Assembly (NCBI GenBank): GCA_003344405.1
Contig: NOWV01000016.1
Location: forward strand, 434,001-498,000
From: Trichoplax sp. H2
Lineage: Eukaryota
Direction: 5' to 3'
DNA: 64,000 nucleotides
The notes beneath the pieces are model-generated. The model made no database searches, was not told the DNA's origin, and saw nothing but the letters and a program-made list of their open reading frames with translations. Position 1 is the first letter of the stretch; each line of letters begins with the position of its first letter. Shown piece after piece: positions 4,101 to 34,702 of the stretch. Made by a program: the position numbers and the translations under genes.

Positions 4101-6536
4101 TCCGAATTTTAGATTACCAACTGGTAAAGCGACTTTTAAAAACACTAACAACATGCTTATCCTTATACTAACAATACTTAACTTTCTTTTGTAATCAAGT
4201 AACGAAAGTAGATATAACCATAATCTCCACTATAAAGAATAACTATCATTTGTTTTAAGTACTAAAATGGTGATTGATTTTAAAATTTACCTTCCAGCGC
4301 TTTGGATACTGTAATCATCAGGATATGTTAACATACATTGACAGACAGCCTGTTATAATGAGCCATTAATAAGAGCAAATATCAGTAAGAAGCGAATAGA
4401 GTCCAATAAATTTGATCATTTCTATCAAGCCATTTTTAGTTGGGTGATACATCCAATGGGCTAAAGATGAAAACATACCTCTAAAGCTTCATCATTATTG
4501 GATAGGTTAGAATGCCTGGCAATTTCGAATAGTCGTCTTAAAGCAGAGTCAACATACTGACGGCGATTTTTATATAATTTTAAGACCAATACGATTTGAT
4601 GTTCATCTTGCTCTCCGGTAGTCTAATGAATTATGATTGGTAAGATGAAGTTATAACATCTAATTTACAATTGAAATAAAAAATAATTCAACTCAGATCT
4701 ACTGCAATCCTTGGATTACTAAACCCATGGATAGCATACGTATCACTTTGTTTGTAATATCAATATTATTGTTTGACTCACATATTGAGCAAGCTGAGAT
4801 AATCCAGGAAAATTATGATAATCGACAAACATCAAGCCTAAGAATTCTAACTTTGGCTTGACACTTAATAAAACTTCGAAATTTTTTCGACATAATTGCA
4901 TGCCCGATAAATCGAGAGCTTCTAACTTGGTTAATTCTATGCAATGATAAATGACAATATCAATATTTAGGTTAGTAAATAGCTTCTAATTTGATTCATT
5001 TGATGTAATGATCAGTGATTGTATAGAATATTTAGGTTCGTTAATAGACTCATAGGCATATTTAGTCAGTTAGCTGGTTCAATGGCCAGATCGATGGATG
5101 TATCTATTACAATAAATGATTTCTTTCCTGGTTGATTTGTACTGTGGTTAGTATCTATATGAAGCATCAACTACCGATACATAGATATATCGTCAACAAA
5201 CGCCGATACATCTATTTCGATGAAGTTCTTCTATTGATAAATTAATCAATTACATCCAATTTGAAAGGCAATTATTTAGCGGGTTAGTCTATCACGACTA
5301 TCAATGTAACGAACTACTGAATAAACCAATTTTTTTTTGTCCAAGAAAGTTATTGATATTTCCACGATAACTGCATATGAATGTTTATTCTAGGCTGTAC
5401 TAATGTTATAATGAGTACTATATGAATGCATTATTGTAACTTGGGGTATACGTAATATCATATGATGATTGCGTTGATAACATGGTCAGGTATAAAATTT
5501 TGAAATAGTATAGTAGTAGCCTTCATGCTTGTTTTGCTATTCAAGGAATTCGCTAGCACTAGACGATCAGTTAAAATGGATTGGTTAGGGGAAAGAGTGT
5601 AATGTTGAAGGACAACCTTAACATAATTTAAAAAGTGTAGTTCTATCGCAGGAGGATAAGAGGGAAAATATTGTCTCATCATTAACAGTGGATTTCGAGC
5701 GTTTACCATCATGCTGATATAATAAAAAAAAAAAAGGGAAAAATAATCATGAGCTAAAAATGAAGTATGCTATTGTATTTACCATGGAATAATTCATCTT
5801 CTATATATCCATATTGCCTCATATGTTCATAACCATTCATTGGTGAACATGAGATGTCCAATTTGCGCAAATTTTTCAATCTTAATACTGTCTTTAAAAT
5901 AAAATCAATGCCTAAACTATCGAACAAGAGTAAGCACTCCAAGGTATCGGCTAGCACTTCTAGACCTTTCAATGACTTCAATTGTAAACCGGATAAATTA
6001 ATGGCTTTAAGATGACGTAAGCGTCTTCCTACATCCAATACATTGCTATCAATTTTAGTATAGCTAGCATCTAATGATCGCAATGCATGAAAATTGACGA
6101 CACAACGAAAATGATTAATGGATGTACAATGATTGATATTTAAATGGCGCAACGTTGAAGCACTTTTACTCTCGAATAAATACAACACATATTCGGTAAT
6201 ATGATCATTTTCTGATACATCAATCTCTTGTAATTCTTGATTGGCTAAATATGATAATCCTTTATTGCTAATTTTACTTCGACGAGCACATAAACGACGC
6301 ATTTGATTGTGGCTACCACTGCGAAATAAAGAAAGCCAAGCTTCATTGAGAAGATGACGAGCATTAAGCCTTTTGATCATTGCGTCGCCAATTTCGGGTG
6401 GTAACGACAAGGTGGGATAGAGAGGAAATTGAAATCCACTGCCGTTAGGCCGATCGACATGCGAGCTTAACTGCTCAATTAATACATCGATACAATATGC
6501 AACCAGTGAAGGCACTGAATAAACAGGAATATCCAT
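1200..6536 (-). CDS. ZER1: ZER1/ZYG-11 family Cul2-ElonginBC E3 ligase substrate receptor (BC-box, LRRs, ARM repeats), about 740 aa, 18 exons
   Basis: Manually spliced GT-AG exons keep one frame: 5783-6536, 4782-4936, 4479-4622, 4291-4349, 3950-4012, 3400-3463, 3195-3248, 2989-3099, 2781-2828, 2627-2695, 2472-2520, 2331-2401, 2181-2228, 2032-2099, 1800-1929, 1663-1715, 1479-1573, 1200-1387. N-terminal VPSLVAYC BC-box, LRRs (LRHLNINHC, LRSLDASYT, LRKLDISCS), and ARM-region motifs AWSAMWNVTDETPENCERF, MLGLLGNVAEVKSLR, YNSAGILAHLASDG, WAFANLT typical of ZER1. Confidence 0.9.
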
Positions 6537-7001
6537 GATCAACCAGAATAATGTGTCATCAAAATGGAAGACCAAAGGGAAAAAATGGTTGCTACGTTAT
6601 TGACTAGCGACCTCGTAGATGATGGCCGCCTTGACTGGCTAGTTGACGTTTACCATGGACGGACGGAAGAGAGTACGGCGCTCTGGCTGCCCGCAAGGTA
6701 TACCACTCCAGTATAGCCAGAGTCGACTAGTCCTTGCACTAGTACAACTCGATAAGGGGGCCAGAGTAGGACCCCAACCGAACCGCTTCCTGTCCGGTCC
6801 TCTGTCCAGCGGTAACACGCTTATACCGCTATATACTGTCCTATACAAGCGGAGCAAACCATACAGAATGTATACTATCGCGACAACGACGAGGACATCG
6901 TATTAACGTAGCAACTCACGCAGGTCAACACTGTGTCAATCGCAGTGCAGCGGCTCGAGCTCCAATCGCCTCCAGAAATAATGCTGAAACAGCTCGAGAT
7001 G

Positions 7002-8138: not shown

Positions 8139-8832
8139 ACACAACACTAGCCTACAGTAGAGTAATAAGATTCAAGAGGAAAAGTGAATCATTTCTATCC
8201 TTTCTAGTGCTGACGATTGGTTAATTGACTTCAAATTCAGCAAGGACAAGTTGTAAATAGCGCCATCTTGGAAGGGATCGACTTTCGATCATTTTAGCCC
8301 ATTCGACCATAGTAATTAGTGATAGCTGACGCCAGTTACAGTACTTACCCTATTTCTCTATCATCTAGAGTTAGCAACCCTAACAATACTATAAGACCTG
8401 GTGTAAAGCCCTATTGATCCTTAACAGTAGCATCATTCGTATGGTATTTGGATACGGTTACAGTAGTAGTACTGTATTTATACTCAAAATAGTTTCGGGT
8501 TCAATACGGCACAGACTTCTAACGGACTGCTATTAGTATAAGCTATTCACTACTGTCTGAGTAAGAAGACTGAAGTTGTTGACAGTTTTCAAGAGTCCAG
8601 CACGGTGACCACCGCCCTCAAAGACGGCCATCTTGCTCCACCTTGGACCCGTTTGCTGCCATTGATTGGCAAGTAATCCATTGCAATGCACACTAATCTT
8701 CTTAGATTGCTAGTAAACCTTTAAATAAACAATCGAACTTGGATGCAACCTTACCAATAATAATCTTACAGTATCGCGATGGGCCAATCGAGCAAAGATT
8801 GTCATCATCATCGCGGTAGGCCAAGGCAAGAG

Positions 8833-10918
8833 ATGCAAACATCCAGCAAGAACAAGCAATTAGCTGGATTAATGCTCCACGATGCAATCGCTGGAGGATT
8901 TGCTGGATTAATAACACGCTTTCTTACTTCACCGCTTGATGTCATCAAGATTAGGTTTCAATTGCAGCTTGAATCAACCTTGAAGGTAAGCTAATGGTGG
9001 ATAACGAGCTATGCATGCTTTAGTTGTCAACACTCATAGCCTAGTAGCAAGCTAACTGAACTTTCAACTTGATCAATCATCTCCCAATGCTAGACACAAA
9101 AACAAAATTCAAAGTACTTTGGAATCTATCAATCCATGATAAAAATTATTTCGGAAGAAGGTCTATTAGCATTATGGTAACAATTCTTCTTCATTTCACC
9201 CTTCAATTTGAATCTTATCACACCTTCAATGTCTCAGCTTGACCACTATAAATCAATTCTAGGAAAGGACAAATGGCTGGCCAACTCTTGTCCATCACCT
9301 ATGGAGGCGTGCAAGTAGGTTATCTGCTATTTTATGACATAACTATTATTTTAAAGTGATCGAATCATACTGCTCTTGGTGCCTAGTACAACTGTATATT
9401 AAAGTTTACTACTTTGCGGATTTATAAATAGTACCCTGACAAATCAGATATAAAATAAACTAAGAGCATACGAGTACAGTAATTGAATAATGATCGCGTC
9501 ATCATGATAACTACTCTTTTCTTCAAGCTAATACCTTTCATTTTATGATTTACAGTTCATGTCATATAATTTCAGTAAAAAAGTCATCTATGAATTACAT
9601 CAGCAAAATATAATTTCTCCATTACAACCTAACGGTAACTACCATCAACAGTCACACTCTTGTCTCTACTGTAGAAGTGCACATTATTAGTACACATGAA
9701 TTAACTGCCATCATTCATTTCAGTCGTCAGCTTCGTTTGTGGCAGCATAGCTGGCCTTACTGCTTCAACAGTAGCTCACCCTCTGGATGTCTTGCGTACA
9801 AGATTTGTCGCTCAAGGCGAACCTAAGGTAGTTGTAATTCTTTGCAAGTTGCAATACTAACCTTTCAATAACCATCAAAGTGTTTGTAATTTATAATAAT
9901 ACTATCTTATTTTATGCTATTAGTATTATATTAGCTATAAACACGCCTTAGCTAAGATGGGCAAAGATGAAGGGATAAGATCATTTTATAAAGGTAAACA
10001 TTTATGCTACAGTTTATCCGATTGAACATTCTCGGAGAAGATATTTCAATATTCAGTAAAATGAATTAAACGACCATCCATAGGTTTATCACCAACATTA
10101 CTATGCATAGTACCTCAGACTGGTCTGCAATTCGCGTTTTACGAATTTTTTATCCGAGAACTGAGAAGGTACTCAGTGGCTACAAGTAATGGAAAAGGGG
10201 TAAAATTGGTCACATGTTATTCATGTTTCAAGAAGACATTAACTTGTGTGTCCCTACTAGTGCATTAGCAAAGGATCGATATTTTTCAATCTTATCTTTG
10301 TAACTTTGTAGAATTTAAACAAAAATGGCGTCGATATAACTGTAAGTGGAGGCGCTGCCGGAATTTTTAGTAAAAGCATCATCTATCCACTTGATGTGGC
10401 TAAAAAACGATTAGAAGTATGGATCATATCGCATATACCTGCTTTTTCCAATTGGTTATCAAATCTGCATTTATTATAGTGCATAGTATTTTGATTGCTA
10501 GACATATTACAACTTATATAACTATGTTAATTGCAAGATACCGGCTTTATATCAATCATATCTTTTTCTCTTTAGGTAAATGGCTTTGTAAAGCCCCGAG
10601 AAAAATTTGGTCAAGTAGATAAATACAATAGTCTTAAAGACTGTTTTCTGAAAATATGGTCCACTGAAGGCCTAGCTGGCTTTTATAAAGGACTCTCTCC
10701 TAGCCTTGTTAAGGTGAATTGACACATGAATGAATGCAATACAATCGCACATATCTAGTGCTATGTAAAACTTAACCACATTAGCTATAGCTAGGATATC
10801 CTAGATTCTAAATTAATGACTTTTAATTTCATTATAGGCAGCATTATCCTCCTCACTGATGTTTTTCTTGTACGAAAAGAGTATTTATTATCTTAACAGA
10901 ACACGAAAAGATAGCTGA
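8833..10918 (+). CDS. SLC25A19: Mitochondrial carrier, thiamine pyrophosphate carrier (SLC25A19/TPC1-like), about 326 aa, 10 exons
   Basis: Exons 8833-8985, 9094-9176, 9263-9314, 9556-9634, 9724-9827, 9924-9993, 10084-10199, 10312-10416, 10576-10713, 10838-10918. Three PX(D/E)XX(K/R)XR signatures: [42 protein letters not shown]. These strings and [12 protein letters not shown] match SLC25A19. An in-frame upstream ATG exists at 8779. Confidence 0.88.
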
Positions 10919-13900: not shown

Positions 13901-14649
13901 ATCATTATTCTAGTTAAATTACAAATGATGATAGTGAATAAACAAGCTCATCTTGATTAAGGATCATCAGCTTGATTAAAATATGCCTACCGGCTTAACG
14001 AGTTAATTTAACTATAAATTGAAAGATTCTCGTGATGCAGTAAGATTGCATTCATGATAGACTACTTCGCTTGGAGAATACTGATTCTATGAGATATTCT
14101 TTACTTTTAATCAATAAGTTTAGCACTTGTTTCAAGACAACGGATCTTGTAATTAATAATTAATAATATATTATGCTGACAAAATACTCTATCATTTGGA
14201 AATTTTACCTAAGCATAATTTTAAAAGACTCCCCTATAAAAATATTATTGTAACCTATTTTAATCTAGCCAATACTAATTGCATATGGAAATTCTCTCTG
14301 GCTTTGATCAGTTCGCCACGGCTTTAAAGAAAGCTATCGTAAAAAACACAATTATCGATTCAAAAAATTATCCGCTATGACTATTGATAGTAACCCAACA
14401 GCGACAATATCAATCCATTACGAAAGCCGGTACTAATTTAAGGAGTTCATTAAATCGTTTAGTTCCTCTATTTCTGCTTTAACCTAATAACTTCCGTCCT
14501 ACTCTAAGAAACGATCATTCCCAGGATCAGAGCTGATCTTTTACTTAGAATTAGTCCATTATCAATGCTATATTTTTCTACTATGGCCTATGCAAGGAAT
14601 TCATTTCCTTTCTCTCACTCTCCCTGTATCTCTTTCAATCAACAATTTT

Positions 14650-15340
14650 TTTTAAAGTGGACGTAGAAAATAAAGCTACTATTCATCTATTCCTACACTA
14701 TAAAATACTCAATTAAAAAATCTTCTTTCCTTTAACATTGTAAGAATAATAAATCGTTTTCACATTGTCAATCGCCATCCTTTAACTAGCATTAATCCAG
14801 TATAGTAGTAATCTCTCATCGATTTTGAAAAAGTCAACGTAGAAATGAAATTCCTATTTGTTATCCCTACGGTATAAAATACTTCAATCGAATAACCCCT
14901 TCCATTTGCAATGTAAGAATAATTAATTATTTCCACACTGTCAAGCATCATCCTTACCTACTATTAATCCAGTACAGTTTTGATTTATATCTCTTATCAA
15001 AGACTTTAAAAGTCAACGTATAAAATGAAATTCCTACTCGTCTATCCCTACGTTACAAAATACTTTCATCCAATAACTCCCTTCCATTTACAAGGTGAGA
15101 ATAATAAATCATGTGCACCATGTCCAGCGTCATCCTTTATCTAGTAGTAACCCCAGTATACTTGTAATCTGCCAATCCAAGATTTTGGAAAAGTCAACGT
15201 AGAAAATGAAATTCCTATTTATCTATTCCTACGGTATAACATACTTTAATCGAATAATCGCCTTCCAATTACAATACAAGACTAATAAATCCTTTCCAAC
15301 ATGTCAAGTGTCATCCTACAACTAGCTTTAATCTACCATG
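14650..15340. repeat. Diverged tandem repeat, four ~178 bp units, upstream of the kinesin
   Basis: aaagtcaacgtagaaatgaaattcctatt...aatact...aagaataat...catcct recurs at about 14654, 14829, 15008 and 15189. Confidence 0.85.
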
Positions 15341-15840
15341 GTTATTCTCTTGTTGCTCAAGAAGAGAAGATTGCACCTAGAAAGGAAATACAAATCAAAC
15401 TTTATTTGCCCGCAGCTGATCTACTATCTATTGTTATAAAGCAAAATAAGATGTAGATCATCAACTATGTTATATTGTCATATTATTCAAACTATTGTAC
15501 TCTTCTAGCGTCATAACTAGGTTTAATTTGTTATAGGGTAATGGAAGAATTTTCTTTGACAAACTAATAATTAATCAAGCAGCAACTTCATTAATATTCA
15601 GTGACGTGATACGCTCATTATCCTTAGTTTTTTTTTATGGAAACAATTTCATGCCTTTACTATGACAAGATGATGTACTGTATTAGCCATCTACCTCTCC
15701 ACAGTGTTGAACTCTCATCTTACTATATTAGTTGTAGACGCGTTGGTATGTCGTCGTTACTGAGTTATACAATCGATCGAGATCATTTATATCAAGCTTG
15801 ATTATTATTATTCTAACATTGGATATAAATTGACTTTTTC

Positions 15841-18800
15841 ATGGAAACCACCTTGGAAAAAGAGATTGATCGACAAGAATCGCCAGCAGGTCCACGTGAA
15901 CGATTGAAAAAAAGAATTTCTAATCGATCATTGCCTCATGTACCAGCGGGAAGCAATGGGAATCAACGACCAGCAACGCGAAAATTGCCTTCAGCTCCAT
16001 CGCCTATTACCACGGCTGGCAATGATCAAAATCCATTATCTGGTAAAATTCGTGTTATACCTATTGAGGCACAATTGAAGCAATTAGAAGCAGCAAGACG
16101 TCGTTCATTGCCGATGACAGCGGGTAATAAGCAAGAGATTTTAGTTCAATTGGAAGCTCGAGATCGAGCCGAAAGTTTCAAAGATAGAATGGTTGATCCT
16201 TCATCTTCTTTACCTTACCATTTTCAACATGAAACTTACTACGATGTCGAAAGCCATCAAAAAGGCACGCAAACGCTTATTATTGATGCATTCGATGAAG
16301 TACGAGTACCATGGACTATCGTCGCTAGATTTAAACCAACTTCTCCTGGGTAATAATGATCTATTGACTAGACATTGATTGAAATTTGAAGTAAAAACTT
16401 TAGAAAATACAACAAATTTATTGTCTACTATCTCTCTAATCAATCTCGATAGGATCAGTTAAATACAACTTATTGTAGAGTGTCCATAGATAGATGGAAT
16501 CCTATCTACTATGATATAATATCTTCCGTAGTTTAAATAAAGGTAGAGCTTGTTTATAGATAAGCGCTTGATAGACATCGATCTTGATTAATTATGAGCG
16601 ATATAAATGGCAAAAATGCCATCTTGCAGCTAAGCATAACGAATAATAGAGCAATCCATCGTTTTACAGCGCAGATTGCTTTTTCGCCTCATTTTTTCTG
16701 CTCCCTACACACAATACAATTTATTCCATAACTATTTCTACTGGATCTTTTATTTACATTTTAATCGCTTCTTTTCTCCTATTGCTCTTAGAGATAAAGA
16801 TCAAAATATTGACATCGGTCAAAACAGAATCACTTATAGAGCAACAAGTGGAGAAATTTATGAAAGCAATGTTGATCGGGTCATCAAAGCTACGGATAAA
16901 GACAACAAGCACGATGAACTTTATAAAATGATCGGCCAACCTATAGTTAACTTAGCTTTCAAAGGCTATAATACTTGCCTTTTCGCCTACGGACCAGTAC
17001 GTAAACAATTTTAAAGTAGAGAACGATAACCTAAATAGAATGCTTACTATTGATGCAGATGTTGACATATATAAAACAGTTTATTTGAATCCTTCCTCTG
17101 AATTGTTCTACCTTTTATCCTTTCATTGGTATGATTACTATCGTATTATAAGAATATTCAAGTAGCCCAACTAGCCATTAATCATACTATGTACTTTATT
17201 TTCGATCGACATGCTATTGCTTATCTAGTATGAGACTATGCCGTTATGACTACAAGCATTACGATAGATATTCCATCTATAGCATGTAATAAATTCAAAA
17301 TAAGAGATAGTTCAGGTGGAATTCCTACTATTTATGTAGACGTGAACATAGACAATATTAATATAGAATATCTAATTTTGGATCATTCCCTTCAAGGATT
17401 CCACTTTTAGCTATTTTGCTTCATCATCATTACAAACCTTTATCGGCATCATTTTATTCTGATGTCTATGCCAAAAAGTAGAAAATGATGCTGTCCTTTT
17501 TGTTTTTCTGCCAACTCAAACTTCCATTTATTATAGGAGCAGATTAATACTATTACATGTATCATCATGACAAGCTTTTAATCCATGTCATTTGCAAGAG
17601 TTTCCTGTGCTTTCAATTATGACTTCGTGACCTTTAATGTTCCTCCTTTTCTTTTGGTAATTTTTTTTAGATTGGTAGTGGAAGATCTTACTGGTAATTG
17701 TTTCTAGAACCACCACATGCTGGCTTTAATACAAATATTTTTAATTCAAATTAATAAAGCTACTTAATGCCACTTTTCAATTTCCATTCCTCGAATTTGT
17801 CTTGCGTGAATACTTTAACATTGATAATTAGTGCCTTTCCAATTTTCTTTTACTAGCATTACCGGTAATGATATGGATGAAGGATTAATTCCGAGGATAT
17901 GTGATGAATTGTTCGATAAAGTAGCAGAATATGGGGAGGTATTTGCACTTTTCTTCAATGTTTTCCTTCCTTTCAAAATATCTAACCAAGGTATATTGCT
18001 GTTAACTAATTAGGATAATGCTAGTATCGAATTTGGCTTTTACGAAATATTCAATGAAAAAATCTACGACATATTAGCACTTAATGAACATACTAAGGCA
18101 GTATGTAATCTTAATTCTAAGAGCATAAGTCTAGCTTTTGAAAATGATTATTATTGAACTCAACAGAATATTCATATAGCTATAGATAGATAAGCGAGCA
18201 AACAACTTTTCCATTAAAAATTTCAACTAATATTAATCATTCCTTATTTCACTCATTATTAGCTAAGCATATTAGAAGATCCGCAAACAGGACCTTATAT
18301 CGATAATTTATCTATGTAAGCTACTTTTAAATAAGAATTCAAAATTCTTCATAAAAAGTAAAAGAAATATTCGCCCATCATCTATAAAATGAACTCTGTT
18401 TAAAGGATCGGTAGTAATATTAATAATAAAAATTTTTTTACTATCGAAAAAGGTTTATAGTGAAATGTAAAGAAGACATTATAGTAAGTTAGAAGATAAA
18501 TGATGCTTATAATATCTTCAAATTAAGGTAGACTTTCACATTTTTAATAATTCTACAAAAGATTTAATGTAAGCTAAAAATTGAATATAGGACTGGCTAG
18601 AATATGGACAAAAGTTTAGGGCCATTTACAGTAACGGAATTAATCGTCGAAGTCGTCGAGCACATGTTGTATTTACGTTAGTTTTAAAAGTCTTCGAGGT
18701 AGTTTTCTGCAAGTTTCCTAGGCAAACAATAATTTTAAAATCATAGTGCGATTTTTATACCGTCGATTTTGAACTTATCATGTATACTATATTATAGATA

Positions 18801-21800
18801 GTAATTGTCCTAATTTAATCTTCTATAGACAACATTGGATGGAATAGAAGAAGTGGCAACCACTGCCAAAGTATCACGACTTAATATCGTTGACCTAGCT
18901 GGTTCTGAACTTGGATTTCAAAATAGTGATATAGTAAATTATATGCATCTCATTAACATAGTAACAACTATTTTCCAGTTGGCATGCATGTTAAATTCTT
19001 AATATGACTATTATACTATATAATGTAACCAAACAAATACTAAATTACTATCTTTTTTTTTAATATACAATCTTAGGACAACTGTAGTATTAGTCAATCG
19101 ATACAATCCTTCAAGGCAATAATTAGGCAATTATCCATGGAAGAAACTGATGAGAACAAAGCTGAACGAGCTTATAAAGATTGTGATTTAACGAGGTAAT
19201 ACAACTTCATAACATGATTTCGAGATGGAAAGCTTAATAATTTCAAACTATAGATTAAAATGACCTGCACAGTAGACAGAAATTTCCTGTTCATTCTTTG
19301 TTTAATCCAGTTTATTAAAAGAAATCCTGGGTGGAAATTGTAGGACTTTTATGCTGGCAACTCTTAGTCAAGCTGCTTCGAGTACTGGCGAAGAATTCAT
19401 AGATACGATAAAATATCCAAGAATATACCAAACTATGTCAACTCTAACATTGTTATAGAAATTTGATCGTTGCGTAACTATAACTTTGTTGCTACTTTAT
19501 ATCAATCAGATACAATGAAATATTTAAGGTCTATAAAACTGTTTAAAATTCTAATATTAGCGTAAAATGACATCACTTTATTGAATAAGAGTATTTATAT
19601 TACTACTCAAATCATCTGGTTAATTTAATCATTTCAAGATTTTACGAAATGGGTATCAATTATAAAAAATTATTCTGTGAATTCCAATTTGATTGCTTTA
19701 TTAATCTAGAAATAGCATTGCATGGATATTTTATAATCCTTAATAATTCATAAGTTATGCAATGCTGCAAAGTCAATTATAAATCGAGCACGAATTAATG
19801 AAGATATTTATGGTCTCCATCTTAAAGGTACTAAACTTCAGATTATCGTCATGATAATATCTAAAAAAGGCTAATTACACTATAATTATAACTGTTAATT
19901 TCCTTACTGTTTTGGCTAATATAAATTCCGTCGTAGAATTAAAGAAGCAATCAAGTGACCTTAGGAGCCTAATGGCACATCAAGAATCCAATTCTACATG
20001 GAGCAAAGACCTAGCCAATATACAGAAAGACATTGCTATCACCGTTAAAGAACTTACAAGAGAAAAAGAGTAAATTTAAAAATTCTTTAAGAAATTGTGC
20101 TATCATGCAAATCAGTACAATACTATATGAGACTGGTTTAGTTCAAGATTTAGTATAGTTATTTTCTATTCAATTCATTCTGATTACAGATTAATTAATT
20201 ATAAATATGAAGAATCTAATACATTTAAAGATAGAGCACGACAAGATCTTGAGGTAAACTATATGCGCAATCAACCGATATTACTTGAAATCTACTATTC
20301 AAAAATGATTTTAGATATCTAAAATAATTTTATCAAGTCTTAAAATTAGAGAAATGAAAATAGAGCATTATTCCATCACCAAAATTGTATTTCAGGAAAT
20401 GGGAATTGCACCCATGAAAGACAGCAAATTTGATTACTTGGTTAATTTACACGAAGATGATCGACTATCAACTATTTTGTACTATATCTTAAAATGTAAC
20501 TGAACACTACTCCGGATAGACTTTATTTAGAACTAAAGTATATTTGCAAAATAGTGGAAAATAAAATTGCAGGATAAAAATTCCAACTGTTATCGCTATA
20601 TTATAACGAGACCAATCTTTCCGTATCAAGCAGCATACACCTCCGTGGGAAGTCTATATTCTAATTGCAACATCCGTTTACCTGGTGCACTCATAAGTGA
20701 AAGGCATTGGTAAGTTATCGTAACTATTAAGCCATATGTTTTCATGCTATGGTATAAGATAAAATCTTTTTTGATCATTTACGACCTAGTGTATTAAAAT
20801 TACTTATTTATGGGTTATATTGGACATCATAGATTAAACTAAACGAGTAGACTAATATCCTATGTATCCCACTAATGGCGAAGTAATGCTGTCTAACTAA
20901 ATAATTCGTTAATTTTACATTGCAAAATGATTTTAATCAGCAACGGTCTGGTCTATTTCAATCTATGGAAATGCAGTTTACATTGTAATCTATATTTTAG
21001 CCATTCTATACTCGGAATAAGCTATAGTTTTTCCCAGCCAGCTAAGTGATGGCTTTGAAACAATCCATCTGCGCCATAATATAAGATAAAATTACTTGAC
21101 TAGAAGCGATCGAGTCTATTTAAATCTATGAAAGATACAGTTTATACATACTATAGCCTATGCCCATAACCAACTTACGAGCAGATTAAAGTTATATTCA
21201 GTCAATCATGACAATCTTGTCGGTTTCGGTATTTATGTTATGTTATAAGAATAAAATTAATTTAATCGTCCATGATTTAGCTTACGATACAATCTGCCCA
21301 ATAGTATCATCCATTAGTACTACAAATTATAGGCATATAAATTACTTATTGAGTTACGATTTATTCTATGTAAAATTTCTGATAAGAAAAGCCACTCTTA
21401 ATATAATTATCATTCTAGCTATCATATATTTAGTTAAATCATATCCAGCCAAAACTAATAATGATATAATCTAATCAATTATCGAGTCCTATTTAACTAG
21501 ATTCTAGCTACTGTAGACTCGTTATTAGTCTATTTAAGCAATGTCAAAAATACCATACAATTTGTAATATAATCTTAGCTTAAATGTAAATTTACTGCAA
21601 TATATCTCGTACACCAAAAACTACATGTTTTCTTATTTATAGCACATTGCAGTTTATCAGTTTTAAGAGCAATAAAATTATTGTTATTATGAAATATCAA
21701 ATAAGCTAATTGCAATGCATATCACATCTATTTAACAGTTACTTCGAAATTAGCGGTGATAAAATTACCGTCACTCCGACAGGTAAGAGTTTAAATTAGG

Positions 21801-24800
21801 GAATAGTAAAGGAAAGTGCATACCAAACTATACATTTGAATTCTTTTCTACACGTCCAGCTCCCCATAGATATGCTTACTTCTTCTAGTTTTAACCTATG
21901 ATTTTTTCCTTTATAGAAAACTCAGCCACATACGTCAACGGTGAATTACTTAAAGAAAAGAAAGTCCTACATAATGTAGGGATTAAAATTCTGATTTATC
22001 GATTGTTTATTTTCCTTTCTCACTGATGTAACACTGCTCTCGCTTTTGTAGAATGATAAAATAGTCTTTGGTGATCAATTCTTTAGGTTAGAGATTAGGC
22101 ATTGCGCATCATTACTACTTAAATTGGATAAAACCTTCTTCCAGTAACAAACTATTGACCTCACTTGCTGATAAAAGAATTTCTTTTTTCTCTTTATAAT
22201 TTGCTAGAGTAAATTGTTCCAGAAGACGTGCATTGATTTTAACGCAACCTACAACAGTTGGATCAATTACATTTAAACATGCATATCAGGAGCTGTTATC
22301 CAAACAGCTGGAAAAGTAAGCAGAACATAAATAATAAATTAATCGATATTCTATTATCCTTTGATGTAAAACTAAATATGTAGCGGTAGCTATACTCTTA
22401 CGGTAAAGGACCAAATATACAATAATTTAATCTACTAATTCTATATACTGTAAAGATAGTCAATACAATTTCATGGTTATTTGTTTTCGTAACAGCCTTG
22501 TTAGAAGGACCTAGTTCTTAATAATACAATGGTCATTTGTCTTTATAAATCGGTGATGAGAATATTCATTCTAATTCAAAATGATAGCTAGCCAAGAACA
22601 TATGAGAAATACTCTTTTAATTATCTTGATAGACTCGGTGGGGTATAAATCGAAGACAATGAATTTATCTTCTAGCTGTTCGCTATAACAATTCTCACAA
22701 TTTAGCGCTGCAGATATGATTTATGATTTATAGGGGCACGATCTAAGTACCTAGTGTTACAGTTTAAATTTCTAATGACAATCTTTATCCTAATTCCCCA
22801 GTAGAGAAAAGAGAATATCCCTTTTAGTGCATAAATAATCAGCGTTCTCAACTATATGATAATTGATTATTTGCCTATTTTTTGGCGAGGATTATCAAAT
22901 GCTATTACTGTCAATTTTAGTCATAATATGTTGAATATAATCCAAATTATAATCACAGTTTACATCTATAATCGAGGACAAAGATATCTTCAGAATAATT
23001 TAACACTCTATGGTGGAAAATACTGGAGACTTTCGTCCATATAGAAATATCATTGTCTACGCATCCTATATCCATTAATTCTTGCTAATATGGATGAATG
23101 GGAAGAAAAGTAATTCCTTATAGATGTTAATAGAAAGGATTCCAATTTCTACATTATATATACAGCAATTAGCCAAATAGTCTATTCTGTTACTATTATA
23201 AGGGACGAAACAAAGTTCCTGTCTAGTAATCTTGCCTCCCTATTACATCTCCGTAGTCAAGACAAGTTTATCCTCACCAAGTTCCTGTTTAGCCACCTAG
23301 TCTCCCTATTACATCCCCATAATTAAGATGATACACCATTATAAAAGTAATCACTGTAACTTGAGGTAATAACGTCTATAGTAAAGTCAGTTCTTAAGGG
23401 TCTACAATAAATCAGACTAACTGGATTTAAAACCCGAACTAAGCTTTATTACAATAAAGCTAACCGTAACTGCATTTACAACAAAATATTAACAAAAAGA
23501 ACTCCCAATCTACTTCTTGTATAAGCTTATATATCCTAGCGCATGACCTATTTAATATCGGTAGTAACATTATCACGCTTTCATGTGCTAAGCACGGGCA
23601 TTGAATTACTATATTTTACCGGGGCACAAGCGACTAATGGCATTTAAACTACGCTAGTATTATAGCCTACGGTAGTGCATATTAGTAATTCCATAGTTAA
23701 TTCAGAATTTAACTCAAGTACTAAGCTCACGACACTACAACAATTATTTCATGATGCAGGATAATCCAAGAAATTGAAAATGCTAATAATCAACTAGACG
23801 AGGAAATTTCACAAAAAATCATGGATTTACAGGTAAATCAGGAATCTTGGCTGGATTCTATTGCTATATTCAACTGCGTTTTAAGTATTTCCTTAGACAA
23901 AATTGAAAGAATTTTAGATACAGCAACAATTTAACAAAATATGATTGACTAACATAGAAACAAGATGGAAATCCTGCTCAATTACGCGTAGCAATTGAAA
24001 AGCTAGAGTTCCAACAGAGTGATTTATCTATGGTTAGAGAATGGATCCGAAATTTAGTAAGTAGACATGATGCTTGTCCATAATTCTACCTTACATGCTT
24101 AAAAATGATCTGATTATTTTTCACTTTCTATTTATATATTTCAATTTGGAAAATTTTGACTACACTATAAACTAGAAACGACTAAGAAGGATAGATCCAA
24201 AGAAAAGAAGAGATAGTTTAATGAGTATCGGTGAATAAATTCTAATATAGCTAAGTCATAGAGAATTGGAAAGGAAAACGATCGGAAATGGTGATTCAAA
24301 TTTTTTTTATTTTACTGACAGATGAAAGTACTTATGAAAGTTTAAGACTCTCTATTCTTCTCAACGAAGCCAATCATATTAGTAAAGCTATTGGAGAAAC
24401 AGCAGTAAGTATATCATTATCCTAATATTTAGAAAATTGAGCTAAATTGAATTTCAATATCTCAGTCTGTTCATTGATGATTATCTACGTAGATATTTGA
24501 TCGTCTTGACAACGTAGTCGATGGAAAGGTAAGAAGCAACAGGATGAAGGGTTCTATTCGACCTTAAAAAAAGCTTACCGAAGAAGTTTTACAATAACTG
24601 ATCATTGACGATCGTTTTGGTCATTTCTTTTACCAGATTTTAACTAAAATCTCCATGAAAAACCCACAAACTAACAAGACTATTACCTGGTCCTTTTTGA
24701 AATTTGAATCGCACCTCGCTAATATGCGCGAGATCAATTGGGTAGGAGAGGATTTCTTGTTTAAATAGAGATGTTCTAGTTGGCTGTGATCCACTAGTAT

Positions 24801-27800
24801 AAGTCTTTGGTTCTAGTTGGATCTTATGAGGAATAGAATAGTAGGATATTAGAGCTTTTCCGTTATACTTCTGTCGGTGATCACCATCTTGACGTATTGA
24901 AGACCTCAGGGAAAGATTGAAATTTCTGTTCACTAATTTGTAGGAAACGAACATGAGAAAATCCAATTATGGGGATGAATTAAATACCGGTCGAGTTGGA
25001 GTCTATAAAATTGGTAGCGAAGAAGCAGAAACAACAAACAAAGAGAGAATCCTTATTCCAAAATCAGAAAGCGACCAAAGCGATTTTATTAAATTATCGG
25101 AGAAATTACTCAACGACATGACTTTAAAGAAATCATCAAGTTTACCGATACGAGATAGTACAAAAGATCTAGCGGATATTGCCATGACTGATTTATCCAA
25201 AGTTTTAGCTAATGTCGAACCTGAGAGTAAATTAATAGGGAAAGATGAAATAGAAATCGATACTACAGAAATAGTACTAGAAAATCCAATTATTGATCCG
25301 TTAGGTTTAGATACAGAATCAATGACTATCGATTTAACTAATGAAGAACAACGAAAATCACTAACAGATTCCTTATTTCAAAATTCCAATAAAATCAACA
25401 ATTCTTTGTATGGCAGTTCGGGGGATAAATTAGAATCGTTATTTCATAATGTGTCAGGCGATGTTAATTCACCTAGTAGTAAGGAAACTTTAGATAGCAC
25501 TGAAATCAACGATCATGACTCTGAATTAACGTTTAATTCCATTTCCTTAACGGGTAGCAAGCGTTCATCTGTTGCCAGTCAAGTAGAAATACATCCAAGT
25601 AGCAAGCGATCATCTGTTGCCAGTCAAGTAGAAATTTATCCGGATAGCAAGCATTCATCCGTTGCGAGTCAAATAGATATACATTCTACCCTTCAAAGTA
25701 ATTATTTATCTAAAGAAATACAGCAGGATAATCCTAATACAACGGGAGATATCAATGATAGAAATCATTATTCCAAGAGTGAAGAATCCACGAAGGCCGT
25801 TGATAACAGGACTATACCCAATGCAAGTCCAGTTATTGCCATGAGCCATGATAATTATACTTCAAGTAGTGGTGAAGATGATCGAAGTTCAAGCTTACAA
25901 CAACGACCAGTAGTAAAGAAAGAAGATCTAAAGCTGTTGTAAGTTATAGCTAATGGTTGAAGAATAGTATTACTCGTTTTCTTAACCTTTTTGTTTCATT
26001 CAGTGTCTTAAAATGTGCTAAAAGTAACTTAAGTATAAAAATGAATTAAATTCGTTTTCATTTACGGTATATAGAGAAATTGTGGCCAAAAATAGTATTC
26101 AGACTGGGAAAGGATCGAAAGGAATTTACCCTGTAAGAAGAGGACGCAAAGCCGAAGTGGCTTCACTGGTAAGATAAACATTATTAGGGAATTTTTCAGT
26201 GCCTCAAGTTATAAGTAATGTACTGCTTTTGCGCTGATATGATAAAATAATAGCTTTAACAGTTAAATCATCGTTAAGATAGAATAGACACTATTACAAA
26301 ATTGTTCAATGCCTTTTCAATTAAGTGTGATATTGTATTGATATGATAAAATAATAACTTTTAGCAATTACATGATTAGTAGGTTAGGATAGACCCTATT
26401 AGAAAATAATAGTTAAAAGTACTAGCTTCAACGGGCAAATCATTAATGAGATAGAATAGACACTATTAGAAAACATTAGTTAAAAATACTAGCTTTAATA
26501 GTTAAATCATTACTAAGGTAGGATAGAGAATATTAGTAAATACTAGCTTTAACAGTTTAATTAATGATTGGTAAGAACAGATAGATATTATTAATATTTA
26601 AATATTAGCTTTAATCGTGAAAGAATAATATATACACTTACTTGTAGGAAAGGGAAATTTTATCTGCACCATCAAGTCCTAAATTAGAAAATCGAAAATG
26701 TAATGGACTCAATTTAATATAGCGTCCATCTGATACAAATTAATAAGTATTCTCTTTATTATTGCACAAATATTAATAGTTATCAATTTCTTGCATAATT
26801 AGCCTTCAATTCCGCAACAACTATTGTCAAACTTTGTCATGATCATATCCAAAAGGCAATCTCATTTTTGGAAGGTATATCTAGATAGTTTTTACATACA
26901 ATAGCAAAGCTACAATTTCATATCTCGGGAATTCGGAGTAGAATAATAAAAACTCGACGTTATAGCCATTCCATTAATTTGATGTATTATCCGTATTTCT
27001 ATATGTACCTTGTAGCTGGAGTACAAGCCTGTTATGTCCCACTACCTCAAAAAGTTTTACACGAATGCCAGATGCTATCAGCTTTTGGAGCCTTATTACT
27101 CAGATACTATAATAAAGGTAATGAAAAAATTTCCTGTAACGTTGGCTAAATTGATTAATAGGGCGAAGATACTGGCAAAATTCGATACAAAATAACTTAT
27201 TACAAGTGATTTTATCATAATATACGCCTAACTTGATTATCGATCAAAACTTAAAAATATTCTCAGAGAAAGTCGGAAGTTCCGTTAACCTAAATCATTG
27301 CTGTCTCCAATTAACTGTATCGATGGAAATGCTGGCTGAACATGTTCGAACTTGGGGTAGTATGGATATTGCCCATAATACCTATGATCATATTAACATC
27401 CAACTATTAGGAATAACAAAGATCGCAGGAGGAAATGTGGCTAATATGCTTCTGGTAAGCTAATTTAGAAATAAATAAGTCGTGATTATTAGTAATTTAG
27501 TACTCCTGAACATCAGTTATTGACTACTTTAAAATTCTACCATGTCATAGGCTGCTGAAACTTGGAAGGTCAGCGAAATCCATAATTCTTATAAGAGAAT
27601 TTATGATTGTGTCCATTCTATTGCTGAATTATCAGGGGAACATACCTTTGTATCAGCATCTTACCTATTTAATGATGAGAAAATTGATAATAGCGATATG
27701 ATTGATGACATAGATAGCCATCGCAACCTTATTCAGGTATAGATCCATTTGTGAAGCAATCTTGGTGTGATATTTTCGTAATAGAGAGCAGTTGCATGCG

Positions 27801-29307
27801 TGATGTTAGTTGGGTGTAGAAGGATCTCAATTTTCGCTTTAATCAAATATTTCTGTATAGACAATATTATAAAGTTCTAATTTCGATTCTAATTAAAAAT
27901 AAATTCATATTACATTAGTCTTACTATCCGTGAGAACTAAATAGCTAATAACTAACTGTACTATATCGCTCTATAATTTGGTATCCTATGAATAATTAAT
28001 CTATATAAATTCAAACATTTTAATAAATCTTGTTATTAATTCTATTAGCTAACATCATTTCAATTTAATAGAATAGTCGTTATTAAGATGCAGCGATAAA
28101 TTTACCTATAGTTGGAATACATCTAACTGTTTATTTCCAATAAATAGTTGGATAATTATCTGAAAAAACGATATATTGATGGATCAAATCGTCCCATCGA
28201 AAAGGCGATCATCGAAGCTTATGACTGTATTTTGGAATGTGATGAAAAACTTAGTATCACCGGACATTCTCATCGAGTTCAGGTAAGATACATGAAACTA
28301 TTAAACGTATTCTTAACTTAAAATATTTAAATTGTAGATTAATTCCTCAATAAATATATAATCTAGATAAGTGTTGAAGTCATAAATTGTCTCCTTGACA
28401 TCACACAAGATGTAAAAATTTTATTAAAAGATCAAGGGCTCTTGCAATCGATAGAGGTAATGTAAAAATTCTATCAATACCCATCTGCCTTTGTAATAAG
28501 TATTTATGCGAGATAATCATGAATAGTATCGTCCAACCCTAAGCTAGTATCATTATGTTTCGATCAATATCGATGTCATAATCTTCAACTTTTGAAGCTT
28601 AATTATTTCGACCAGATATTTATTCTTTAAGATTTTATATAACTGACCTTAGATATCTTTACCAATTATAGAATGATATTGACGATTTTAATCAAGTCTA
28701 TTGCCAATCTTCATTTATTCAATCGGTTTATAATCGAGCAGTGGTTGTTATTAACGATGTTGAACGATTAAAACTGGATGTTCAATCGCTAATTGCTACC
28801 TGTTGTGACAAGAACAGTTTGAAGAATAGATTGAAAACTTATGAGGAATCAGTTCAATATAGTAAAAGTATTATTCAAGATATTTCGAAATTGTTAAGAG
28901 TCATCAATCGGCATTCCAAACGTTCCAGTTTAATCCCAAATACACCAGAAGATGGTTCAGTAAGAACGCCCGACTTATCACTGTTTGATCATTCTAAATC
29001 TCAAGATGACGACACAGACACTGGCATCATTGATCTAGCACAAAAAATTATACAAACTTGTAATACATTAAATAAGATTTTAAGTAACAGGTCGTCAGGT
29101 TCAACGACACCAAGACCATCCATTCGTGGTGCATTAGTAAAGGGTGATGAACAAGTAACATCATCTACACCACCTCCAATTTATGTTAGATCGACATCAT
29201 TTACAAATAAAGGGATTAAAAAAGGAATATTTGATGATGCAAAAAGTCGCGAATTAGAGCAAGTTTTAGCATCAGTTAAGAAAAAGCATAAAAATCAAGG
29301 TAAATAA
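15841..29307 (+). CDS. KIF14-like kinesin-3 family protein (N-terminal extension, degenerate motor domain, coiled coil, FHA domain, long tail), more than 30 exons
   Basis: Motor exons: 15841-16349, 16792-16996 (GYNTCLFAYGP), 17671-17693 (IGSGRSY), 17857-17938 (GLIPRICDELF), 18014-18100 (YEIFNEKIYDIL), 18263-18315, 18453-18483, 18591-18698, 18829-18933 (LNIVDLAGSE), 19077-19195, 19311-19412 (LLKEILGGNCRT), 19754-19827. Then pre-FHA/FHA exons (YLVNLHEDDRLS; IRLPGALISERHC; TYVNG; DKIVFGDQFFR), KIF14-like LSILLNEANHIS and TWSFLKFESHLANMRE, a large exon 24944-25938, and a last exon about 28672-29307. The 3' end is less certain. Confidence 0.85.
19413..19753 (+). other. Candidate U12-type intron with AT-AA termini in the kinesin gene
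   Basis: 5' end ATATCCAA; U12-like branch site TCCTTAAT at 19737-19744, about 10 nt from the 3' end. Joining gives EFIDTIKLCNAAKSIIN, in register with the kinesin consensus ETLSTLRYANRAKNIVN. Confidence 0.6.
25556..25685 (+). repeat. Coding 42-bp repeat x3 encoding SKRSSVASQVEI(H/Y)P-like units
   Basis: agcaagc...tc(t/c)gttgc(c/g)agtcaa occurs three times within the large kinesin exon and is visible in the ORF translation. Confidence 0.9.
26235..26615. repeat. Diverged ~55-65 bp intronic tandem repeat
   Basis: Recurrent tagcttta(a/c)(c/t)agttaaatcat...tagaatagacactatta motifs in a kinesin intron. Confidence 0.65.
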
Positions 29308-32300
29308 ATCCAGTTTTACATGAAATTCGATTCTCAATCAAGGCACTGCTAGAACTACGCTACATCCAATCTCCCACTTGTATCAGATCAATATTATTTC
29401 ACCAAGCTTAATAACGTCTAAAATCGCTCATTGGCACAAGTTTTGGCATCATTTAAGATAATACATGAAAAATTAAGCCTAACTAAATCAAAAAATTAAT
29501 TTCTATACCATGCAGAATTTGATTTATAACACCAAGTAATACTGGCATTAGATTACGTGCTGCCTAATGCCATCTGCTGTTTCAATCTTGCGGTAACTAT
29601 CTCGTATTTGAAAGTAACGATAAAAGTTATATTCATCATAGAAATTAAGCAACCCATCTGTTAACACAAAATTGTATAATTATTCATGTCTATTCATTTA
29701 CACTGTACGTATATCTATCAATTCACTTTTGCATCGATTTACTTCGCTAGCTCTCTATATGTACAAGGATACTATTAAATTGGATACCGCAATACCATTA
29801 AATATTTTCCCGAAAATAATAAACTAATTTTCGATATTTTATATTAATTATGTAACATAGTTCAATATAAAAATTCTTCAGTACTACTCAAAAGGAACTA
29901 TTATGAATGATCTTGTTTCTTCTTCTACTTCGCTAATAACTGTAATGATATTATTAGCTGAAATGATAGTAATTATTCTGCAGTCGTTAATTTTTCAATT
30001 GTTTTGGCCATCCTACTGTTAAAGTTACTTCTTTCACTATAACGTTTCAATTGAGACGATACTACTATATTTGATACGTTCTAATCATTCTTCTATATAG
30101 ACATAATTGTTATAAATAATTGCCAACATTTAAGTTTGTTTCTGTAAGAGCTACAATCTTCTGTCAGTTATGTATTTATTTGTATTTATTCTAGCAGTAC
30201 CATATCAATCAGCTCAACATTCAACATAAAAAAACACTGTCATTACGTTCATTCCAATCTCTGTTGATATTTGTAAGTTACAAATTTGAAAAAAATAGAA
30301 TGTTTACAAAATATTTTACGTTCTATTTTGTCTATAATACGATTCTAATCATAGTGGTAGCCTGCCCTGAATTAGTCGGTAACTTTATGATGTTGACGTT
30401 GAAGGATAATTTTTTGCGATCAAGTGATTCTTGATGCAGTTAAAGGACAAAAACTGATATAGCCGTTACGGTAGTGCAAGGAAACCGTTTTCTTAAAATA
30501 AAATGAAAGATCAAATGGACAATAGTCCACCTATAAAATTTTATCTTTTGGCCATTAACAATGTGTAAAACTACTTTATGTACATAGATGAGTTATTTAA
30601 ATAATTTACTAAATTAATTGCTTATTTTTTTATAAAAGATCACTATGGAAATGATCTTCATTCATCATTTTCTACCATGTTACTATCATCAAATTTCCAA
30701 GTTTATGTGATGTACTAACCAATGTCACCATCAACAAACTTAATATTGCTTTAATTTGAAATAAAATATCTCAGCTCAGTTTTCTCTTCCTTGCTGATAT
30801 TATTCAATTATCAGCTGTACTATAAATTTATTATCCTTAGTAAGTTAAATATCCCGTAATTTGAAACTTAAAGTTATCCTTAATTTTATATTAATTTTAA
30901 TATTATGAAATTTTGCATTAAAGAAACTGGCTAGAACGATATAATTGCTTTGTAGCAAGAATGGATAATACGTTCTAACGATATGCTTAGAACTTATCGC
31001 TATCATTTACATTAATATTATGGGATTATGACATGTGCGAAGCTGTATCATCTCAACAACCTAGCTTTATGCTATAGAAGGCTAAATAACTGTGAATTTA
31101 AAAGTAAAATTCTCAGTAAACACTTCTTTCTATAATAATGCCATCCAAATACAACATGCTAATTATGAAGTTACTTATAGTGCTTTAGATATACGAAATA
31201 ACAATTACACTTGAAATACTATTTTCAGCTTACCCTTTCTTTCAAACAGACATCGTTAACATTATGCTTTATGTTGGGCATTGTTGTATCATTTTGATAT
31301 TGCATAAATTTAAAAATAAAATATCTTAAGTCATCCTTTTAATTTGTACTAACTTTAAATTTTTCAGTTATATCCTACCAGAAGCGTTGTATCATCATAA
31401 ACAAACTTGATATAGCCTATATCAGATTTGCAAAGATATCTCTAAGCATTCTTTTCGTATTTGTTACCGTCAACTTAAGCTATGTACATATATACAGTAG
31501 CAATATCATCCCAGCCATACTAAATGTTGCTTAGATTATTGTTATATCCAGTAGATAAAAGAGTCTTATCAGTTTTAGCTATTGCTTTATTGGCGAGATA
31601 TCTTAGTTAATAATGAGAACGTAAATTAATCTAAGCTGGTAAATATGCGTAAATATGCGTAAAAAGATAAGCTGCATCAATCACTAATATCTAAAAGTTA
31701 CCTTTATGGGAATTTCCTCTTTTAAAAGGTAAAGTAAATAGGACTGGTAAAGTTGCCGATGGACTGATTAGTTAGGTAAAAGCATCAATAGCTCAAAATT
31801 TTAGCCTACTGTACGAATATAGCTCTAGATAAAATAACCTAAAGAATTTATTTCGGAATAGTCCTTTAACGTGTTTAGGCAACAAGATGTATACTCTAAT
31901 CTATACCTTTGTCATAAGGGAGACTGATTTGTCTTGGATCGTCAAAATAAAATAGTAACGAATAAGAGTAGGTTAGTTACTATCCTTCTTATACGCTTTA
32001 TCATGGACAAATAACATGGTAGTTTAAGACTGTGAGCCCAAGATAATATAAACTTTGTCAATTACAAAGCAGTATAGAACCTAAGCAAATTTTATATACT
32101 ATTAAGGAGAAGAGACTGCTACTATTTAAAAGTAGTCTTCATTTAGGCTACGACTTGATCTCAGTTGATTATTGCAATTTTAAATCAGAATTTTAATACT
32201 TTTTGAAAATCCATTCTCAAGATTGATATAATCAATCGAGCTTTCAGTATAAAAAAGATTAAGTAGATAAACATAAATTCCATGAAAATAAAAATAGTTA

Positions 32301-34671: not shown

Positions 34672-34702
<31 letters not shown>

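Follow-up and report, generated by a model that had tools for sequence, protein, structure and literature searches.

A KIF14-type kinesin-3 with degenerate motor motifs in Trichoplax sp. H2: a candidate non-motile scaffold

We analyzed a stretch of 64,000 nucleotides from Trichoplax sp. H2 (contig NOWV01000016.1, positions 434,001 to 498,000; called the window in the following), which carries a KIF14-like kinesin gene on its plus strand at 15841-29307. The gene model has 36 exons with 5103 coding bases, corresponding to 1701 codons free of stops, and the predicted protein begins with an N-terminal extension, followed by the kinesin motor, the neck coil, the FHA domain and finally a long tail. 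Judged by its sequence, it is a KIF14-type kinesin-3 by architecture and similarity whose motor departs from the catalytic motifs by which an active kinesin would be recognized. We regard it as probable, with some reserve, that the motor keeps the kinesin fold but has lost normal ATPase activity and stepping, and that the protein acts as a non-motile scaffold or adaptor.

Motor motifs and family placement

The P-loop motif GQTGSGKSYT is replaced by GPIGSGRSYC, and the exchange of the Walker-A lysine for arginine (codon AGA, 17683-17685) lies in a micro-exon at 17671-17693. Switch I reads N-R-R-S-R-R-A-H compared to N-D-K-S-S-R-S-H in KIF14; the first serine, the arginine and the histidine are kept, while the second serine is changed to arginine and the third to alanine. 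Further replacements are ISQSI for INKSL, YK.C for YR.S and GGNC for GGNS. The motif readings of the initial annotation (IVARFKP, FAYGP followed by IGSGRSY, NRRSRRAH, DLAGSEL, SISQSI and ERAYKDCDLT) were all recovered at the places it had given. Regarding the patterns of active motors, neither GxxxxGK[ST] nor NxxSSRSH is found in this motor, whereas DxxGxE is present as the conserved DLAGSE.

To judge these replacements against conserved positions the motor was aligned to 16 comparators (11 KIF14 sequences of vertebrates, a partial KIF1-like protein, and two proteins with double motors, each of which entered twice); the KIF14 sequence P0043 was left out of this alignment because the motif anchor did not locate it. 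There are 39 columns invariant in the comparators, a count that does not include switch I because this region is missing from the partial KIF1-like protein. The model motor keeps 27 of these columns and changes 12, and all 12 are situated in the P-loop (Q238P, T239I, K243R, T246C), in loop L11 and helix 4 (G, L and E of L11, one of them a gap; N407S and L410I of helix 4), in the L12/helix 5 region (R435K and S437C of helix 5) or in GGNS (S451C). In addition, L11 is 4-5 residues shorter than in the comparators. The net charge from L11 to helix 5 is -4, compared to +4 to +7 in 16 of 16 comparators. The loop L12 of kinesin-3 is rich in lysine and contacts the tubulin tails; here it reads MEETDENKAE and is acidic instead of lysine-rich. 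As far as the sequence can tell, the degeneracy of the motor is beyond chance. It is the placement of the changes that is striking rather than their number, because the whole protein is distant from vertebrate KIF14.

The kinesin fold is still recognizable exon by exon. Five out of six motor exons match the Pfam family PF00225 in the order of the profile (profile positions 41-82, 93-116, 180-211, 221-238 and 286-313) with 12-26 bits each; the exons were scored singly, and each lies below the whole-protein cut-off of 29.3, while the whole motor of Xenopus KIF14 reaches 368 bits. The exon that encodes helix 4 and L12 (19077-19195) has no Pfam match, and none of its four solved-structure matches at E <= 10 is a kinesin.

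An alternative exon supplying GSGKS or SSRSH had been named in the initial annotation as an observation that would speak against its own proposal. In a six-frame scan of the whole 64-kb window SS[RK]SH is absent, and G.GK[ST] occurs once, at 40678, in an unrelated context 11 kb past the stop of the gene. Hence no alternative exon within the window could restore the canonical motifs.

Splicing was followed in four runs aligned to 14500-31500, all of which are stored as contigs, so that joints are visible but expression levels are not; the joints reported here are 15 out of 37. One run (X16, labeled "RNA?") contains no joints, covers introns and upstream DNA, and appears DNA-like; it was excluded from the RNA evidence, and stretches without RNA cover were not taken as evidence. 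The two GT..AG joints around the P-loop micro-exon (16996>17671 and 17693>17857) are present in X17 and X18, i.e. in two of the four runs and in two studies. Three of the four runs, X17, X18 and X19, share the joints 18698>18829, 18933>19077 and 19195>19311. In contig 11 of X17 the 276 bases ahead of 18591 equal exons 3-7 exactly (23+82+87+53+31). The gene is transcribed, and its motor exons are spliced as predicted, including the micro-exon coding for GSGRS. The splicing, which the initial annotation had left to be confirmed by RNA, is borne out, since contigs from two studies join exactly these exons.

For the placement within the kinesins we gathered 120 long vertebrate relatives (P0018-P0137) as comparison proteins, starting from the canonical match P0003, which is itself a KIF14. 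A BLAST comparison of the spliced model with KIF14 yields approximately 30% identity over approximately 800 residues in colinear order; the best E is 1.7e-95, for an alignment of model residues 159-851 with residues 332-1130 of KIF14. For the three other kinesins compared, the E values were 1e-35, 3e-30 and 1e-24. Of the seven motor exons, three have KIF14 as their top match among solved structures: those starting at 18014 (17.0 bits), at 18591 (25.2 bits, with 16.2 for the next kinesin) and at 19311 (21.8 bits, with 17.9 for the next). For two more, namely exon 2 (24.7 bits compared to 25.4 for KIF13B) and the exon at 17857, KIF14 lies within about 1 bit of the best match. For the switch-II exon the nearest structure is KIF1A (15 bits). 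A match of Vik1 to exon 5 (14.3 bits, E 0.35) is insignificant and was taken as noise.

The regions outside the motor point in the same direction. A profile derived from 80 FHA segments of KIF14 matches residues 578-671 with 81.3 bits (E 3.5e-27), and a KIF14 tail profile matches the block behind the FHA domain (residues 693-852) with 34.5 bits. Gruneberg et al. (PMC2063646) describe the FHA domain as a defining feature of kinesin-3 and an N-terminal extension ahead of the motor as unique to KIF14. The protein has such an extension, as its strand beta-1 (IVARFKP) begins at model residue 160. Farther along the tail the likeness fades. The four-helical bundle of KIF14 (PF23313) is present in Xenopus KIF14 at residues 1171-1264, and it had no match at E <= 5 in five tail exons searched singly. 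The far tail scores 0.4 bits against the KIF14 tail profile with HMMER; the hhalign alignment is colinear but weak (score 30.9, probability 5.6%), a score that none of 10 shuffles and 1 of 70 attained. In a tree of motor domains, which sampled only KIF14 and three odd kinesins and was built without KIF13, KIF16 and KIF28, the protein sits on a long branch, and the tree shows no more than that about its family.

Taken together, sequence similarity and domain order support the placement as a KIF14-type kinesin-3, which is in agreement with the KIF14-like kinesin-3 proposed in the initial annotation: the extension, the FHA domain (81 bits) and the colinear BLAST alignment (about 1e-95) all back it. 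The accompanying statement that both the FHA domain and a KIF14-like tail are retained can be followed in part; it applies to the FHA domain and to the block behind it, while the match of the C-terminal tail is weak.

Selection and proposed function

Between the window and the RNA contigs we considered 40 differences (42 further ones occur), 21 of which fall within the gene span and 19 in exons of the model. These 19 coding differences divide into 10 nonsynonymous and 9 synonymous ones over 4023 and 1080 sites, respectively, which gives a ratio of nonsynonymous to synonymous polymorphism (pN/pS) of 0.30 (binomial P 0.0098).

A second line of evidence comes from a search with exon 2 among 1.84 billion representatives, which returned 17 matches at E <= 0.001. 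One of them, P0001, is a fragment of 89 residues present on three contigs of public run assemblies and the sole ortholog found; the remaining matches are either canonical exons of kinesins or proteins with FAYGQ at their end. P0001 is 74% identical to exon 2, has the same FAYGP end, and then reads on into what is an intron in the window, so that the exon boundary appears to be common to both species. We also observed that an intron directly after FAYG(Q/P) seems to be shared by P0001 and an unrelated canonical fragment (P0004), as both predicted proteins read through into non-kinesin sequence at this point. The differences between P0001 and exon 2 are clustered: the first 28 positions have 15 of them, whereas the last 40, FAYGP among them, have only 3 (Fisher 4e-5). 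The alignment shows, at the level of sequence, that at least the exchange of glutamine for proline in the P-loop is older than the split from the species with P0001. The protein libraries searched with exon 2 contained no full-length protein including exon 2 from this organism or a close relative: among longer proteins there were four candidates, none of which scored, and among proteins of similar length P0001 was the only match. A metagenome scan with an alignment of exon 2 and P0001 gave five loci at 35% identity; the translated one (L003) is not a kinesin, and the five were taken as chance matches.

The open frame of 1701 codons, the pN/pS of 0.30 and the uneven conservation relative to P0001 together exclude simple decay. 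By these sequence measures the gene is under purifying selection and is not a decaying pseudogene. The initial annotation had argued likewise from a frame that stays open over more than 30 exons; the 36 exons without a stop, the polymorphism ratio and the conserved exon of the ortholog agree with it.

How could such a protein work? In P-loop nucleoside triphosphatases (NTPases) the Walker-A lysine contacts the beta- and gamma-phosphates, and an arginine in its place usually leaves binding intact and cripples hydrolysis. In kinesins the second serine of switch I helps to hold the magnesium ion. The exchange of the lysine, combined with the loss of this magnesium-coordinating serine, would be expected to abolish or greatly slow hydrolysis, while nucleotide may still bind. 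According to a figure legend in PMC10586761, the microtubule interface consists of helix 4, L11, L12 and helix 5. An acidic L12 and an altered helix 4 would weaken canonical microtubule binding. Neither microtubule-stimulated ATPase activity nor stepping would then be expected.

The protein would work instead through its conserved parts, i.e. the neck coil for dimerization as well as FHA domain, stalk and tail. Selection appears to maintain the part of the fold that leads into the pocket, along with neck, FHA domain, post-FHA block and tail. For human KIF14, PMC2063646 describes that residues 1-356 target the midzone and bind PRC1, that residues 901-1649 bind citron kinase, and that midzone localization does not need the motor domain. 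Because partner binding and midzone targeting of human KIF14 are thus independent of the motor, a scaffold role is plausible. By analogy, the Trichoplax protein could be targeted to the midzone and bind PRC1 through its extension and citron kinase through stalk and tail, without need of the motor. A more far-reaching version, which we offer tentatively and hold to be unlikely, is that this is the sole KIF14 of its lineage, that it was catalytically dead before the split from the species with P0001, and that it is still under selection.

Several observations weigh against a non-motile scaffold. Non-motility is read from the motor sequence. The selection estimate stems from a partial list of differences, and the motor holds only 2 of the 19 coding ones (1 synonymous, 1 nonsynonymous). 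The lone ortholog fragment P0001 covers only the change from glutamine to proline, and neither the change from lysine to arginine nor those of switch I. The N-terminal extension has no similarity to the PRC1-binding region detectable by BLAST, as the matches start at the motor. Identity to vertebrate KIF14 is only 36-39% in the motor and 38-44% in the FHA domain, and the lineage may simply be divergent, with some of the changes compensated. Finally, DLAGSE, the arginine of switch I, the glycine and serine residues of the Walker-A motif and the neck linker are all retained, and some nucleotide-dependent switching or slow hydrolysis may survive.

These retained elements, together with the histidine of switch I, lead to the question whether the protein is an odd motor that still works, in which other changes compensate for the Walker-A arginine and allow slow ATP hydrolysis and movement or tracking. 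The neck linker (NRARINED) would fit this, and so would the exon leading into the P-loop, which is strongly constrained across two species (3 differences in 40 positions) as one would expect of a pocket that still matters. We nevertheless consider it improbable, since the 12 changed columns out of 39 are all catalytic or track-binding, the track-binding segment is net acidic in contrast to every comparator, the exon of helix 4 and L12 is unrecognizable as kinesin, and the exchange of the Walker-A lysine for arginine is established to cripple hydrolysis in P-loop NTPases generally.

A role as regulatory partner appears to us similarly doubtful. Here the gene would be a duplicated KIF14 paralog whose product uses the neck coil to pair with an intact kinesin-3, in the way the motor-less Vik1 and Cik1 pair with Kar3, instead of being a scaffold on its own. 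Such a paralog had been proposed in the initial annotation; the retained neck coiled coil and neck linker as well as catalytic motifs as degenerate as those of known non-catalytic partners are consistent with it. However, the protein has retained every element of the KIF14 architecture, among them the N-terminal extension and the FHA domain, as expected of a sole ortholog, and nothing points to a second KIF14-like gene in the protein libraries searched with exon 2, a search that does not cover the genome outside the window. A transcribed pseudogene, or a gene that has begun to decay, with a coincidentally open frame would account for the degenerate catalytic motifs and for the introns kept in some RNA contigs of X18 and X19, but it is very improbable in view of the stop-free 1701 codons over 36 exons, the pN/pS, the strongly uneven conservation relative to P0001, the well-kept FHA domain and post-FHA block, and the spliced RNA from two studies.

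Exon structure and setting of the gene

The window is AT-rich (32.9% G+C), and its genes are split into small exons. The gene model was obtained by exon chaining based on codon score with the RNA joints forced, and was corrected manually at 18453-18483, 18591-18698 and 24637-24741. From the exon chain and the joints of the RNA contigs the coding span starts with the ATG at 15841 and finishes with the TAA at 29305-29307; it lies on the plus strand, like all exons in the following.

Exon 1 (15841-16349), whose open reading frame opens after a stop at 15826-8, contains the start codon, the N-terminal extension of approximately 156 residues and, at its end, strand beta-1 (IVARFKP). Contig 9 of X17 spans 15736-16348 and continues for 206 bases, which equal exon 2 plus one ambiguous base. 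Exon 2 (16792-16996; 26.4 bits to the Pfam kinesin family) covers beta-1 to beta-3 and ends in FAYGP, where active kinesins have FAYGQ. It is followed by exon 3 (17671-17693), the micro-exon of 23 bases that supplies the P-loop residues IGSGRSY and whose flanking joints are those found in X17 and X18. Exon 4 (17857-17938) corresponds to the helix 2 region (GLIPRICDELF; 12.4 bits to the Pfam kinesin family), exon 5 (18014-18100), with KIF14 as its top solved-structure match, contains YEIFNEKIYDIL, and exon 6 (18263-18315) contains EDPQTGPYIDNLS; the lengths of exons 4 and 6 agree with the contig arithmetic. Exon 7 (18453-18483) has 31 bases and was read by eye, and it is required for the sum of 276 bases in contig 11 of X17.

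Switch I (NGINRRSRRAH) is encoded by exon 8 (18591-18698), which is joined to 18829 in three of the four runs. Exon 9 (18829-18933), the joints of which are likewise present in three of four runs, carries beta-7, the switch II motif DLAGSE followed by L, and the start of the shortened L11. The main microtubule-binding face lies in exon 10 (19077-19195), with SISQSI of helix 4, the acidic L12 and the first part of helix 5 (ERAYKDCDLT). Exon 11 (19311-19412) contains LLKEILGGNCRT, again has KIF14 as its top solved-structure match, and is represented in X19 by a contig piece at 19309-19410. The motor is completed by exon 12 (19754-19827) with the end of helix 6 and the neck linker; a loose end of X18 at 19827 continues with the first 8 bases of exon 13.

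The intron between exons 11 and 12 (19413-19753) is not of the GT-AG type. It starts with ATATCC and ends in AA, and TCCTTAAT is found at 19737-19744, roughly 10 bases upstream of the 3' end. As we take the ATATCC start, TCCTTAAT near the end and AT-AA ends to be the marks of the rare AT-AA class of U12-type introns, it is probably a U12-type intron with AT..AA ends. The piece of the X19 contig stops at 19410 and continues for 43 further bases, which fits the 19413-19753 junction with two ambiguous A's, although the joint itself is not among the 15 of 37. We accepted the junction because the reading frame and the helix-6 alignment require it, and no GT-AG alternative keeps both.

The neck coiled coil is encoded by exons 13-14 (19937-20069 and 20190-20253) and aligns with the neck of KIF14. 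The FHA domain is distributed over exons 15-19 (20396-20495, 20631-20709, 21739-21782, 21917-21975 and 22052-22086). Exons 20-26 (22223-22315, 23760-23832, 23958-24056, 24176-24230, 24322-24404, 24493-24528 and 24637-24741) form the stalk with the post-FHA block, which includes LNEANHIS...KFESHLANMRE; four joints in this region, among the 15 reported, are backed by RNA. From 19311 to 24741 the model sums up to 1234 bases compared to 1246 in contig 11 of X17, so that the model is 12 bases shorter, outside the motor. Alternative acceptors at 22208 (+15) and 20634 (-3, a tandem AG) may account for this gap.

Exon 27 (24944-25938) comprises 995 bases, is Ser-rich and of low complexity, is covered by RNA contigs and has no Pfam family. 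Within it, at 25556-25687, there are three tandem copies of a Ser-rich unit of 15 residues (SK[RH]SSVASQ[VI][ED]I...). The helical tail follows in exons 28-35 (26075-26168, 26648-26699, 26803-26874, 27016-27117, 27267-27454, 27551-27736, 28148-28282 and 28367-28456), where six joints among those reported are backed by RNA and the last three introns are predicted by the model alone. Exon 36 with the stop (28672-29307) is spanned by contig 12 of X17 (28670-29591). Pfam searches with exons 1, 27 and 36 and the tail exons gave nothing relevant.

Two further observations concern the transcripts. Introns are kept in some otherwise spliced contigs, at 22087-22222 in X18 and at 24231-24321 and 16350-16659 in X19; these contigs may represent intron retention or unprocessed RNA. 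Furthermore, contigs of X17, X18 and X19 run approximately 1.7 kb beyond the stop (29308-30980), either as a long 3' untranslated region or as a neighboring transcript.

Downstream of the kinesin gene a Notch-like receptor gene lies on the minus strand at 33398-41000, with EGF repeats at 38460-40749, an LNR domain at 38136-38387, ankyrin repeats at 33398-36373 and a low-complexity stretch rich in Thr, Ala and Ser at approximately 34540-34884. EGF, LNR and ankyrin repeats together make up the domain set of Notch receptors, a combination specific to animals. Upstream, on the plus strand, is a gene of the mitochondrial carrier family (8764-10720), with a match to Pfam Mito_carr in the exon at 8764-8991 and more carrier-like pieces of open reading frame up to approximately 10720. 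An open frame of 280 residues with Zer-1-like leucine-rich repeats is situated on the minus strand at 5757-6596. Rfam and tRNA scans of the 64-kb window gave no matches.

Comparison with known kinesins

KIF14 itself is a favorable reference, as its mechanochemical cycle is the best structurally resolved among kinesins (PMC10586761), and as the protein is reported to be needed for cytokinesis in human cells (PMC2063646). A degenerate KIF14 in which scaffolding would be the maintained function would help to separate motor-dependent from scaffolding roles. If the gene were the sole KIF14 of its lineage, this would argue that the ancestral essential function needs no motility. Were that sole KIF14 also dead, it would amount to a natural separation-of-function experiment: the conserved job would be scaffolding via extension, FHA domain, stalk and tail, the protein would presumably organize midzone and cytokinesis partners, and ATP-driven movement would be dispensable. 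If, on the other hand, a canonical paralog exists, the history would be a duplication followed by the loss of catalysis, comparable to pseudokinases. Our limited literature search turned up no account of a degenerate KIF14; as evidence that there is none, this is weak. The same small search agrees with the remark of the initial annotation that known inactive kinesins belong to other families.

The closest known system is KIF14 (mouse and human motor structures 4OZQ and 6WWE-6WWV), which shares the domain order of extension, motor, neck coil, FHA domain and post-FHA block and is the best overall match. Vertebrate KIF14 is motile and has canonical GQTGSGKS, SSRSH and INKSL motifs and a basic L12 (PMC10586761 and the comparator alignment); the protein of Trichoplax has GPIGSGRS, SRRAH, ISQSI and an acidic L12 instead. 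The two also differ in the N-terminal extension, with approximately 156 residues here compared to 356 in human KIF14 and no detectable similarity between them.

KIF26 (kinesin-11) likewise has a kinesin fold without motor activity and takes a signaling or scaffolding role, according to PMC10585591. It belongs to another kinesin family and has neither an FHA domain nor the KIF14 architecture; the likeness is functional only. KIF26 still binds microtubules, whereas the binding face looks compromised in the KIF14-like protein. The yeast proteins Vik1 and Cik1, which are partners of Kar3, and Smy1 have kinesin-like folds without catalysis and act as partners or adaptors. They are fungal and of other families, and Vik1 is without any nucleotide pocket, while a P-loop-like GxxGxGRS remains in the protein described here. 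KIF7/Costal2 (kinesin-4) and NOD are immotile or non-processive with binding or scaffolding roles, and they keep the Walker-A lysine. Both are again of other families; KIF7 shows weak matches to one exon (15.6 bits). Compared to these systems, a non-motile scaffold of the KIF14 type would, if true, extend the list of pseudo-motors to kinesin-3 by a protein that is expressed and selectively maintained and has a disabled pocket and an acidic track-binding face.

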